Sequence record: LR597660
Source: Escherichia phage T4_ev151
DNA length: 64,000 nucleotides
Strand: one strand, 5' to 3'
Shown piece by piece: positions 24,970-38,578 of the stretch; position 1 is the stretch's first letter, and each line of letters opens with the position of its first letter. A program made the position numbers and the translations under genes. A model generated the notes under the pieces. The model saw only the letters and a program-made list of their open reading frames with translations, searched no databases and was not told where the DNA came from.

Positions 24970-25172
24970 GTAACCTTTAAGCAGTATTCTTCTACATGCT
25001 GTTTACGACCTTTCTTATCAATAAAGGTATATTCAACGAATGTTCCAATGTAGTCTTTATCTACATCATGCGGACTATTAATTGGACATTTAGTACGGCA
25101 AATGCGTTCCCATTGACGAATAATTACTGCCTTATTCTTTGGGTCATATGGATGTGGATAATGTATATTCAT
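24960..25172 (-). CDS. Hypothetical small protein
   Basis: ATG 25172 (track TTG 25187); ATGA overlap with upstream stop. Confidence 0.45.
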   Translation of the reverse strand: MNIHYPHPYDPKNKAVIIRQWERICRTKCPINSPHDVDKDYIGTFVEYTFIDKKGRKQHVEEYCLKVTWL

Positions 25173-25636
25173 AATAACGGTTCCCAATCAACAATCACAA
25201 TTTCTAATTTAGAGGAATATGTATCTAAAATCCCCTCAATAATATCCCAGTTCCCTTTACCTATGCCTGCACCAATCCTAGGCATATAGATTGTAGGTTT
25301 AATCAGTTTATTTTCACCAAACTCATTTAATTCTAACATACAATTCATTAAAGCGGAATACTCAAAATTTGGCCCTGGTTGAAATTGAGTATAAAGGTTG
25401 AAGCAATACGCTTTATGAGTCCTAAAGTATTTTTCATAGACTGAGTAAGAACCGAGTTTAGTTACATCACCCCATTCAGTCTGTAATTTATCAGCTTCCA
25501 AAATTTTAGGGAAAGCTTTGGTTAATTGACCCGCTACGCCTGAACCCATAGTATGAAAACAATTGCATCCATGCGCAATAATATTACCTTGAAGAAATAG
25601 GGCGACAATATCGCCCTTGATATATTTTACAATCAT
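25169..25636 (-). CDS. Macrodomain protein, TARG1/OARD1-like
   Basis: 155 aa; YIKGDIV...IIAHGCNCFHTMGSGVAGQL and IYMPRIGAGIGKGNWD match recalled TARG1 motifs. Confidence 0.6.
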   Translation of the reverse strand: MIVKYIKGDIVALFLQGNIIAHGCNCFHTMGSGVAGQLTKAFPKILEADKLQTEWGDVTKLGSYSVYEKYFRTHKAYCFNLYTQFQPGPNFEYSALMNCMLELNEFGENKLIKPTIYMPRIGAGIGKGNWDIIEGILDTYSSKLEIVIVDWEPLL

Positions 25637-25974: not shown

Positions 25975-26512
25975 TTACTATTTCCAAAAGTTTATTATTT
26001 TTAAGGTAATTAGCCTTTTCTAGGACTTCAGAAGCATATTTAGAACCTGCTTTAACATTCCATCCCGAATTATAAGAGGATATTGCTTTTCTTATATCGC
26101 CCTTATGTATATTTAACCAATAAGAAAGTTCAATGTACGCCCAGGAAGCTGAATTGGATCGTTTATTCAACATTCTTTTTATTTCAGCATCGGTCATATT
26201 ATAACCAAGTTCCTTAACTCTTGCTCGCATAGTAGGCAAATAATTTTGGAACATTCCATAAGCGTGATGCTTTGGTTTAGATTTTAAATTAACTCCGCCA
26301 GAGCTTTCTTGCCATAAAATGGCTGCCATTATATGGCCTAATCCGCTCTTGTGGATGTTTTTGTGTGTTTTATATTTTCCATCCTTAGAAAATTGTTCCC
26401 CGAATTGATACGCGTAACGCATGTTATCGAGTTGGACATTACTGAAAGTATGCTCGGAGCTATGTGCCATCATTGAAATGGCCAATAGACCAGCGAGTAG
26501 TGCTTTTCTCAT
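25967..26512 (-). CDS. Secreted protein, possible lytic transglycosylase-like (vs.1 position)
   Basis: 181 aa; signal peptide MRKALLAGLLAISMMAHS; LWQESSGG motif. Confidence 0.5.
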   Translation of the reverse strand: MRKALLAGLLAISMMAHSSEHTFSNVQLDNMRYAYQFGEQFSKDGKYKTHKNIHKSGLGHIMAAILWQESSGGVNLKSKPKHHAYGMFQNYLPTMRARVKELGYNMTDAEIKRMLNKRSNSASWAYIELSYWLNIHKGDIRKAISSYNSGWNVKAGSKYASEVLEKANYLKNNKLLEIVND

Positions 26513-26519
26513 GCTTACC

Positions 26520-26981
26520 TCATTGAGTTTTAATTACTGCTTTAGAAGCCTTTCCTGGTAAACGACGACTGTTGATAATTGCCATCCTGCATTGAAGTGA
26601 CGGGTTTTTGAACTTCTCATTAGGCTTACAAACCGTAAATCCAAGCCAAAGATTTCCATCTGTGATTTCTAAACGTCCAGGACGATATTCAACCCCATCA
26701 ATAAAATCCTCGTCAATGTCAGGACGCGGAGGCATACTCAGGAATTCATTAACTTCTAAAACATGGTCTTTTATTTTATGGAATAATTCAAAAACATATG
26801 TCTCATCAATCTCCCGTTGAATTGCACGATCAAGAAGATGTTGAGAATATTTTAGATGAAACGATGAGACTCCTGCTGCTTTTGATGCCTCACGAATCTC
26901 ATTGTTAATTTGACGAAACTCCGACTCAAAATGACGACGAAGCTTATTTCGACGGATAAAAACTTCTGTATTGATAGTCAT
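26520..26981 (-). CDS. regB: Endoribonuclease RegB
   Basis: 153 aa, size and position as T4 RegB; early promoter immediately upstream. Confidence 0.8.
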   Translation of the reverse strand: MTINTEVFIRRNKLRRHFESEFRQINNEIREASKAAGVSSFHLKYSQHLLDRAIQREIDETYVFELFHKIKDHVLEVNEFLSMPPRPDIDEDFIDGVEYRPGRLEITDGNLWLGFTVCKPNEKFKNPSLQCRMAIINSRRLPGKASKAVIKTQ

Positions 26982-27009
26982 GTTGTTCTCCTCTTAACTG
27001 ATAGAAAAA

Positions 27010-27038
27010 TTATACCACAGTCAAGAGGAAAAGTAAAC
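27010..27038 (-). promoter_or_regulatory. T4-type early promoter upstream of regB
   Basis: Minus strand GTTTAC, 17 nt, TGGTATAAT. Confidence 0.6.
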
Positions 27039-27040
27039 AG

Positions 27041-27319
27041 TTATTCTTTAAATCTAATCAATTTATTCATAGACTTTGAAACTTCTGCACGGACCTCATG
27101 TAGATTTTTGAGCTGTTCAAGACGCTGCGTATAGTAAGCAATTTCATCTTCTTCGAGACAGTCCTGCGAATCTTCTTTAAGATAACGTGCATAGTCCTGG
27201 AAAGCGTTACGGACTACTTCCTGGAAGTCATCAAGACTTTGAATTTTCTTAGGAGCAGTAGATACACGACGAGGGGCAGTATAATACTCATAACCAAACC
27301 CTGCGCTTAATTGAGCCAT
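27041..27319 (-). CDS. Hypothetical protein (vs.3 position)
   Basis: ATG 27319 (track GTG 27361). Confidence 0.45.
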
Positions 27320-27585
27320 TAGTATTTTTCCTCTGGTTGGAACACTGCGCGACAAGCCCACATACTGGCTTCTTTGAGTTTCGTTTTAGCAATAGTTAAC
27401 TGATCGAGGCTTTCAGCATAATTCTTCGCGAATTCACAGTCTTCGCAATTATCTAGTGCTTCCCAGAATTCATCGTATAAAGCATCAAAGATAAGTCCTA
27501 AACGAACTTCAGCGTCTTTGATAGCATTCACTTTACCGATTTTCTCTTCAGTATGCGGCTTATAACCTTTAATGTCTTCAATCAT
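27319..27585 (-). CDS. vs.4: Acb2-like cyclic-oligonucleotide sponge (vs.4 position)
   Basis: ATG 27585 with AGGAAG SD (alt ATG 27615, track TTG 27621); small helical protein; identity rests on synteny. Confidence 0.55.
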
Positions 27586-27799
27586 ATTTGACTTCCTCAC
27601 CAGTACATAAATCATATTCAACTAAACGAATAGGTTCATGAATGCCATATCCCTGAACAGAAATTTCTGTCGTAGGATAAATTCCACTAATATCACCCAT
27701 ATTCCACGCTTCATTAAATTGCTGTTCGCCTGAATTACTAAACCATTCTGCGAAAGCATTTAGCACATCTTTAGAACCTTCAATAATTATCTTTGCCAT
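27578..27799 (-). CDS. Hypothetical protein (vs.5 position)
   Basis: 73-aa ORF, ATG start. Confidence 0.5.
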   Translation of the reverse strand: MAKIIIEGSKDVLNAFAEWFSNSGEQQFNEAWNMGDISGIYPTTEISVQGYGIHEPIRLVEYDLCTGEEVKYD

Positions 27800-28161
27800 T
27801 ACAGACTCTCAGTAAAGGTACGAGCGATAACGTCGCGCTGCTGTTCCGGAGTCAGAGAGTTAAAGCGAACTGCATAACCTGATACACGGATGGTCAGCTG
27901 CGGATATTTTTCCGGATGCTTAACTGCATCTTCCAGAGTTTCACGACGCAGAACGTTAACGTTCAGGTGCTGACCACCTTCAATTTTAACTGTAGGTTGT
28001 GGCTCAATTTCAATTTCACGGGCATGCAAACCATAGAAAATTTCTGGGTCTACAAAAGAGTCCTCTTTAAAGGTTTTAGAAACAATAATTCGTGCTTGAA
28101 TACCATCTTCAAAATAAATAGTACCTTTATGCGTGCCTTCAAGAATTTGATATGCTTTCAT
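27799..28161 (-). CDS. Autonomous glycyl radical cofactor (GrcA/YfiD homolog)
   Basis: 120 aa; C-terminal half matches recalled E. coli GrcA incl. RVSGYAVRF glycyl-radical motif. Confidence 0.85.
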
Positions 28162-28168
28162 ATAAACC

Positions 28169-28498
28169 TCAATTAGAAAATAAATTTATCCAAGATTGTT
28201 CTTTAATTAAAAATGGCTCAGAATCATATGCCATTAAACTTTGCGTAATTAATCCTTTAAAAGGTCCATCAATAAATTCCATGGTAAAATATGGAATTTT
28301 ATTCATTAGCCGTGCATTAGGAGCAGTGCACAAAACTCTGCATCCTTTGAATACACCTTTTTGTAATTTGTATTGCTTGGGATAAAATTCGCTTAAAATG
28401 TTGTTATTTGCCAAAATTTCAAAATGATTCACCAATTTATTTTTAATAGTTTTTGGCGAAAAATAAAGATATTCGAAAAGCTGAGTGTCTGTCATCAT
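28169..28498 (-). CDS. Hypothetical protein (vs.7 position); start uncertain
   Basis: ATG at 28498/28495 or 28549. Confidence 0.45.
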
Positions 28499-29031
28499 TG
28501 CATTCCGATTACGAAAAACTGTGGACGAGTAATACCACCAATACAACATTTAATATTACAGCAGTAGTGTACAGTGTCAATATGGACGCTATAAATCTTA
28601 TCCATATCAGGAGATTTGACAGGCTCATCAATTATATACAAAATTCGCGAAAGCGATAAACCTCTGAACTTGCTTCCTTTATTACCAATAAAACTGCGCA
28701 CAGAATCAGTAAATAAACGAAAACGTATATCATTAGAATAACGCGAAAATTCCTTTTTAATGTTATTTGCAGAAATTTTAGCGTAAGCTGAAGTATTAGA
28801 AAGAACAATAACTGTTCCGCCATCATACAACCAATTAGCGGCAAAATTAGTTACTGCGGTTGATTTACCGGATTGACGTCCACCATCTAGTCGAAGTGTG
28901 CAATACTGCTTAAGTAAGTCTTCAAATGGTGGGATATATTCGTTTTTACAAATTTCTTCTACTCTAGCATCAGAATGGTGTGTAAAAGCATTCATCAGGG
29001 ATAGATAAGGACCAGTTAAAAATGTTCTCAT
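28495..29031 (-). CDS. Small P-loop NTPase (vs.8 position)
   Basis: Walker A GGRQSGKST, Walker B ILYIIDEP; start ATG 29031 preferred (track 29079). Confidence 0.5.
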   Translation of the reverse strand: MRTFLTGPYLSLMNAFTHHSDARVEEICKNEYIPPFEDLLKQYCTLRLDGGRQSGKSTAVTNFAANWLYDGGTVIVLSNTSAYAKISANNIKKEFSRYSNDIRFRLFTDSVRSFIGNKGSKFRGLSLSRILYIIDEPVKSPDMDKIYSVHIDTVHYCCNIKCCIGGITRPQFFVIGMQ

Positions 29032-29184
29032 TTTATTCTCTCTAAATTTGGGCCATTCCATGGCGCATGAATTGTCCATTTCTGTATTTACCCATTACCG
29101 CACTTGGGCTCGACCTTATTACAGGTTGGCGGGAATCCCTCATAGAATCATGAGGTCCAGCTTGTTCCCATATTTCTTATTTGC

Positions 29185-29658
29185 TTATTTGAATGATTTG
29201 ACGTACTGAATAGAGCCTTTGCTATTCACAAAGGCAATTTTACCATTTTTATTATACATGGTAGCAGTACGCTGATAACCATAAGTTTGTTTACCAGATT
29301 GATAACCAACTAATGCAAAATTATCTTCGCCCATTTTATTCTGTTTAGCGCGGATGCGTTCATGGCCATGTGCCATAAGAACCTTAGCATCACCAGTTGC
29401 AATGGATCGACGAGTTTTTTCATCTTCAACTGTATTAACAAAGTCGTCAAATGAATCAAATTTAGCATGAGATTTATTATACAGTTTTCCATCTACTGCA
29501 TAATTATATCCCTGTACATCCATCTCAACTTCTGTACCATCATCCAATACAGCAGTGATTTTTTGACCTTTTTTAAATTTCAAAAGATCAGTAAAAGATT
29601 CAGCAATAATTTGAGAATTAATAGCTGCTTCAGTAATAAATTCTTGATATGTTTTCAT
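29185..29658 (-). CDS. Internal protein family member (capsid-targeting sequence MKTYQEFITE)
   Basis: 157 aa; N-terminus MKTYQEFITEAA with LxE gp21-protease site; AAAGGAAA SD. Confidence 0.65.
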   Translation of the reverse strand: MKTYQEFITEAAINSQIIAESFTDLLKFKKGQKITAVLDDGTEVEMDVQGYNYAVDGKLYNKSHAKFDSFDDFVNTVEDEKTRRSIATGDAKVLMAHGHERIRAKQNKMGEDNFALVGYQSGKQTYGYQRTATMYNKNGKIAFVNSKGSIQYVKSFK

Positions 29659-29667
29659 ATGTTTCCT

Positions 29668-30084
29668 TTAAATGTAAATATTTTTGCCGTAATACTTGTA
29701 CCAGTGTGGCTTCATTAAAATTTTTTCATCAAGTCGTTGTTGACTCAATTTAATAGCTGATTTGCATGGATTATAATCATTTTTCCATTCTGCTGGAATA
29801 TCGCTGATGTCAGGAACTTCAGTATCTTTTATACTGAACCCGCGTTTTAAGCATTCCGTTATAATGTCTGATTGACGCTTTCGCAAAAATTCTAACTTAT
29901 CGTAAAAGAAAGTAACATGACCAGAACCTAAAATAAACTCGGAAGATATTTTAAAATCTTTAACCCGCTTACCATTTGCAACATGTTTACGAACTATACC
30001 AAAAACACGCGGCAATTCACGGTATTCTGCGATTAAATGTTGATCAGCAAGTTCAGATACTAAAGTCAAATTAATACGAGTCAT
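29668..30084 (-). CDS. denV: Endonuclease V (pyrimidine dimer glycosylase)
   Basis: 138 aa, [17 protein letters not shown]...; diverged from recalled T4 DenV; GGAGGG SD. Confidence 0.9.

Positions 30085-37893: not shown

Positions 37894-38578
<685 letters not shown>

Follow-up and report, generated by a model that had tools for sequence, protein, structure and literature searches.

The vs.4 locus and its genomic setting

The stretch of DNA analysed here (64,000 nucleotides of Escherichia phage T4_ev151, sequence record LR597660; hereafter the window) carries on its minus strand, at 27319..27585, an open reading frame of 267 nt comprising 88 codons and a TAA stop codon. Neighbouring genes were located by searching the window with the T4T proteins (tblastn), the coordinates including the stop codon, and the features referred to below are as follows.

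26520..26981, minus strand: regB, endoribonuclease; 99.3% identical to T4T RegB; PHROG 1323 endoribonuclease
27041..27319, minus strand: vs.3, 92 aa, downstream neighbour; 98.9% identical to T4T Vs.3; PHROG 2037
27319..27585, minus strand: vs.4 / acb2 coding sequence; TAA stop codon at 27321..27319; product identical to Vs.4 of PDB entry 7UQ2 and to T4T Vs.4
27583..27585, minus strand: ATG assigned as the true start of vs.4; conserved across related loci and homologues and used in the published numbering
27592..27598, minus strand: Shine-Dalgarno-like GAGGAAG, inside the 3' end of vs.5; purine-rich, with the same spacing in nearly all related loci
27613..27621, minus strand: rejected starts TTG (27621..27619) and ATG (27615..27613), both within the vs.5 coding sequence
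27578..27799, minus strand: vs.5, 73 aa, upstream neighbour; 97.3% identical to T4T Vs.5; PHROG 1986
27799..28161, minus strand: vs.6; 100% identical to the T4T protein
37894..38352, minus strand: acb1 (gene 57B), cyclic-oligonucleotide phosphodiesterase; 100% identical to T4T gp57B, 152 aa; PF23474

The T4T annotation of the aligned stretch reads regB, vs.3, vs.4, vs.5, vs.6, vs.7 and vs.8, in the same order and on the same strand as in the window, and the order regB, vs.3, vs.4 is reproduced by this annotation and by tblastn alike, which agrees with the placement of the gene in the original prediction as the second open reading frame past regB. The vs.4 stop codon shares one base with the vs.3 start codon (TAATG), and the start of vs.4 at its ATG shares 8 nt with the end of vs.5 (ATGATTGA). 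A Pfam search of vs.3, vs.5, vs.7 and vs.8 returned no matches, and the neighbours therefore provide no functional context.

At the nucleotide level the region 26500..28600 of the window is matched at 95-99% by several hundred Tequatrovirus records, with T4 and T4T at 97.9%, while for a 24-kb stretch around vs.4 the best record shows approximately 97% identity over approximately 91% of the length. The surrounding genome represents a different Tequatrovirus mosaic, approximately 97-98% identical to T4 locally and with another arrangement of internal protein genes and denV.

A number of other features were observed in this part of the window. The vs.6 gene (27799..28161, minus strand), a known T4 feature, specifies a GrcA-like autonomous glycyl-radical cofactor (Pfam Gly_radical, E 2.8e-18), its score against TIGR04365 being 153 bits and under the cutoff of 170 for that model, and tk.4 (25169..25636, minus strand), also a known T4 feature, encodes a macro-domain protein (PF01661, E 2.9e-6). 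The vs.8 region (28495..29143, minus strand) contains a 1-nt insertion relative to T4T near 29036..29046 (GAGAATAAAATG as against GAGAA-GAAATG), which splits the annotated 216-aa Vs.8 of T4 into an open reading frame of 33 aa (29042..29143) and one of 194 aa (28495..29079). As the PHROG 1488 profile begins only at about MRTFLTG, the conserved core of Vs.8 is intact, and it may be that the annotated N-terminus of T4 Vs.8 is over-extended or that this part of the protein is dispensable. Between vs.8 and the lysozyme gene e the window differs from T4 (29185..30084, minus strand): a 157-aa internal virion protein (PHROG 3155, Pfam DUF7412) occupies the slot of the annotated 157-aa 'ipIV' of T2, followed by a denV whose product is just 78% identical to T4 DenV, and tblastn of T4 ipII and ipIII against the window returned no match. 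Other members of the Tequatroviruses commonly show this arrangement, one of them being Shigella phage Sf21 at 97.9%.

Identity and predicted activity of the gene product

The protein encoded at 27319..27585 agrees with chain A ("Vs.4") of PDB entry 7UQ2 in 88 residues of 88 (E 1.9e-57 in a PDB sequence search), and tblastn with T4T Vs.4 gave 100% identity over 88 aa. It matches the Pfam family PF24729 (Acb2_Tad1_hairpin) across the full profile (1-58 of 58) with an E value of 7.1e-20 and 71.4 bits, the curated cutoff being 27 bits, and it also matches PHROG 717 (E 2.3e-32), the family named for Vs.4 homologues by Jenson et al. 2023 (PMC10097602); NCBIfam contains no model for Acb2 or Acb1. The proposal that the gene in the vs.4 slot encodes Acb2 is borne out by the identity to 7UQ2 together with the PF24729 and PHROG 717 matches. 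It had been stated that this identification rests on synteny and size, which proved too cautious, as a product identical to the characterised Vs.4 can be named without leaning on either. The pairwise comparison with T4 Vs.4/Acb2 suggested at that stage returned 88 identical residues of 88, and not the lack of similarity that had been named as contrary evidence.

The coding sequence differs between the window and T4T at 9 nucleotides, and all nine differences are synonymous third-position transitions (P ~5e-5 for all 9 being synonymous, given their type); comparison with a metagenomic relative (L002) gave 5 synonymous and 0 non-synonymous differences. That every difference in these two comparisons is synonymous indicates purifying selection rather than a chance open reading frame. 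Every feature of Acb2 that can be looked for in a sequence was found, namely the family models, a characterised member, the pocket and interface residues, size and synteny, the length of 88 aa falling within the approximately 85-95 aa typical of Acb2. The 27319..27585 open reading frame is almost certainly vs.4 (acb2) of a Tequatrovirus resembling T4, its product being a cyclic-dinucleotide sponge by identity with that of T4, and none of the results speaks against this assignment. In all respects this is a known gene, and it presents no new biology.

The function of the identical T4 protein has been established elsewhere. The vs.4 gene came to light when T4 was screened for mutants with heightened sensitivity to CBASS with an inactive Cap2, on which a T4 vs.4 knockout plates approximately 50-fold worse, and purified Vs.4 binds 3',3'-cGAMP with a Kd of 31 nM (Jenson et al. 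2023, Nature 616:326, PMC10097602). Its fold and oligomeric state were determined by crystal structure and ultracentrifugation. In the 2.0 Å structure the hexamer binds three cGAMP molecules, and each ligand occupies a pocket formed by a pair of monomers; base stacking is provided by Y8 and F82, and hydrogen bonds or salt bridges to the ligand by Y8, H11, K23 and R79 (PMC10097602). Vs.4 prevents cGAMP from activating the CapV phospholipase, an ability lost in mutants of the pocket and of the interface, and Y8/F82 mutants are inactive (PMC10097602). A second study reported a Kd of 84 nM of T4 Acb2 for 3',3'-cGAMP and no binding of cA3 or cAAG, which was explained by a smaller, unkinked second pocket formed by Y37, A57, L60, D61 and T64 (Cao et al. 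2023, PMC10312549). T4 Acb2 also sequesters 2',3'-c-di-AMP, the decoy made by OptS of the Panoptes system; this capture sets the toxic effector OptE free, which is why mutants that have lost acb2 function evade the defence (PMC12657218).

The residues to which these activities were ascribed are present in the window protein. With the residue lists taken from PMC10097602, the protein contains all of the pocket residues Y8, F82, H11, K23, R79 and S74, all of the hexamer-interface residues L29, F33, A66, A73 and A77, and the helix cap T12; the second-pocket residues Y37, A57, L60, D61 and T64 are all present as well. Among 120 database homologues the ligand-contact residues are conserved in 120 (Y8), 120 (K23), 119 (H11), 118 (F82) and 117 (R79), and L29, A66, A73 and A77 show almost no variation (113-118 of 120); the F33 position is occupied by F in 82 of the 120 and by L or I in the remaining 38.

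Given this identity, the 88-aa helical protein of the window would assemble into a hexamer with three dimer-interface pockets, each taking up one cyclic dinucleotide, and it is predicted to sequester, not degrade, cyclic dinucleotides including 3',3'-cGAMP (Kd ~30-84 nM). The sponge would thereby keep the signal of the cGAS-like enzyme from CBASS effectors such as CapV, so that abortive infection does not ensue, and the same activity would be expected to capture the decoy 2',3'-c-di-AMP of Panoptes (OptS/OptE) and so to trigger that defence. The cA3/cAAG gap would be filled by the phosphodiesterase Acb1, to which the T4 literature assigns it and which is also encoded in the window, where gp57B matches Pfam PF23474 (Acb1) with an E value of 2.7e-60. 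With acb1 and acb2 both located in the window, the phage has both known T4 anti-CBASS genes and carries the full T4 pair.

Most of the phage records matched by the 267-nt query label the gene "hypothetical protein"; it can now be annotated by name as an anti-defence gene, and its start codon is defined. What has been published on the identical protein predicts that the phage would be resistant to CBASS systems that signal through cGAMP or other cyclic dinucleotides at modest signal levels, and sensitive to decoy systems of the Panoptes type, which respond to the activity of a sponge. These predictions bear on host-range prediction and on the choice of phages for therapy.

Two readings that retain the Acb2 assignment were considered. 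We regard it as unlikely that T4-type Acb2 has a further, undescribed ligand (bound in the vestigial second pocket, or a Thoeris ADPR derivative), and/or that vs.3 and vs.5 join vs.4 as a small anti-defence cassette, as no observation made here favours either idea. It is less likely again, and in our view very improbable, that the main selective role of the protein is directed against a non-CBASS signal such as the Thoeris 3'cADPR: the accessible part of the literature reports such a role for some Acb2 homologues, but in the same material the only ligands described for T4 Acb2 are CBASS signals and the decoy 2',3'-c-di-AMP, with no report there of Thoeris-signal binding by a T4-type protein, and the genetic evidence on T4 vs.4 concerns CBASS and Panoptes (PMC10097602, PMC12657218). 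The cyclic-dinucleotide sponge of CBASS signals is the reading adopted here.

Translation start and integrity of the coding sequence

Three candidate start codons, ATG 27585, ATG 27615 and TTG 27621, had been proposed for vs.4, and all three are in frame as claimed. The ambiguity that this implied is settled by comparative evidence in favour of ATG 27585, which was already the preferred candidate: the Shine-Dalgarno element is positioned for it, and the comparative evidence and the published numbering agree. The GAGGAAG sequence lies 6-8 nt upstream of this ATG, according to the core counted, and in nearly all related loci a purine-rich GAGG/AAGG/GGA element is found 5-12 nt upstream of the conserved ATG. 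An ATG precedes the G of the GY[KR]PH motif by 6 or 7 codons in 44 of 44 related loci, these being the loci in which the conserved motif was found. ATG 27585 is likewise the start on which the published constructs, spanning residues 1-88, and the numbering of residues such as Y8 and F82 are based (PMC10097602). The literature on T4 proteomics that mentions vs.4 offers a timing statement from an expression atlas alone, N-terminal peptide data not being found in it.

Initiation at TTG 27621 or ATG 27615 would yield a protein of 98-100 aa with an N-terminal extension. Both codons are in frame with no stop codon between them, and a mechanical listing of open reading frames gives a 100-aa TTG product, yet we attach very little credence to this longer form, less than to either of the readings discussed above. 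ATG 27615 is ACG in T4T, whose protein is experimentally active, and the 1-88 construct is fully active with Y8 within the pocket (PMC10097602). An in-frame stop codon 0-4 codons upstream of the conserved ATG is present in many of the 44 loci, making the longer form impossible there. All 120 database homologues have 2-3 residues before E3 (MIE... or MxIE...) and begin M(x)IEDIKGY, none being extended, so that 0 of 120 carry more than 3 residues at this point. The extension would moreover be encoded inside vs.5, close relatives differ in its sequence (LNMIYVLVRKSN, LNMIWERARKSN, LNTIYVLVRKSN), and the Shine-Dalgarno element is placed for ATG 27585. A further in-frame GTG, 11 codons upstream of G7, was rejected as a start on comparative grounds. 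We take ATG 27585 to be the start of vs.4.

The ATG at 27615 is a polymorphism inside vs.5, being ATG in the window and several relatives and ACG in T4T; in the vs.5 frame the change is synonymous (TAT/TAC), and it has no bearing on vs.4.

The gene is thus probably translated from ATG 27585 within the tightly packed minus-strand block that runs from vs.8 to vs.3. The overlap of stop and start codons on both sides of vs.4 suggests translational coupling, and from these codon overlaps only we propose that vs.4 shares a transcript with its neighbours and that its translation is coupled to that of vs.5. In T4 data of the PhageExpressionAtlas, vs.4/acb2 and 57B/acb1 are predominantly middle/late. 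A scan of 26400..29300 with consensus promoter and terminator patterns gave 10 sites as compared to 9.6 expected from shuffled sequence, with no excess over chance. An RNA element in or near vs.4 was rejected, as an Rfam scan of 26400..29300 gave nothing above threshold, the sole match being a sub-threshold chance match to a snoRNA at 29192..29269 (26.9 bits, the gathering score being 88).

That the window might hold an inactivated or specificity-shifted acb2 variant with no working sponge, as found in some relatives under Panoptes-type pressure, has a negligible probability: such variants do exist, both in the T2 reference genome, with a 2-nt deletion in the Y8 codon (remarked on in PMC12657218), and among a few of the 120 database homologues, with R79G/F82V, H11Y/R79C or truncations, but the window protein equals wild-type T4 Vs.4 at 88 of 88 positions and the region of its Y8 codon (GGTTATAAG) is intact, which rules out an inactivation of the T2 kind.

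Comparison with known systems

The closest known system is Vs.4 (Acb2) of T4 itself (7UQ2), with which the window gene shares the same protein (88 of 88 residues), the length of 267 nt, the neighbours, the strand, the overlaps with vs.5 and vs.3, and the start codon, the T4 gene differing in just the 9 synonymous transitions described above. Phage T2 (NC_054931, L050 20772..20912) carries vs.4 at the same locus with near-identical DNA around the start; its 2-nt deletion falls in codon 8 (window ~27560..27565), the original frame reading MIEDIKG followed by a stop codon, whereas the window copy is intact. The annotated T2 product is an 86-aa protein from a shifted start that is without Y8. In T2 the cyclic-dinucleotide site appears to have been naturally lost or altered, which fits the remark made in the Panoptes study (PMC12657218).

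Acb2 of Pseudomonas phage PaMx33 (p26; PDB 8H2J, 8IXZ and others; Huiting et al. 2023, Cao et al. 2023) belongs to the same Pfam family and, like the T4 type, has a published hexamer with three dimer-interface cyclic-dinucleotide pockets, its Y11 and K26 being the equivalents of Y8 and K23 of the window protein. This founding member gave a weak pairwise match to the window protein (phmmer E 0.026), and PaMx33 Acb2 and T4 Acb2 are approximately 24% identical (PMC10312549); owing to this weak similarity the family link rests on the profile match and the published structures. A second pocket, with nM affinity for cA3/cAAG, distinguishes PaMx33 Acb2 from the T4 type, in which D61 replaces R67, the helix is unkinked and the pocket is smaller (PMC10312549). 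A second cyclic-trinucleotide pocket of the PaMx33 type is defined by equivalents of R67 and T74 and by a kinked helix; the window protein has D61 (for R67) and T68, as in T4 Acb2, and the window gene is therefore assigned as a dinucleotide-only, T4-type acb2. A D61R mutant of T4 Acb2 still does not bind cA3 or cAAG (PMC10312549).

The Tad1 and Tad2 Thoeris sponges are likewise small phage proteins that sequester immune nucleotide signals, and Tad1 shares the hairpin domain that defines PF24729; their principal ligands differ (gcADPR), they are not close in sequence to the window protein, and neither matched it in the PDB search at E <= 1. Acb1 (T4 gp57B) serves the same purpose as Acb2, the removal of CBASS cyclic-oligonucleotide signals, yet it is an unrelated protein (PF23474) that degrades the signal where Acb2 sequesters it, and it does not trigger Panoptes (PMC12657218).
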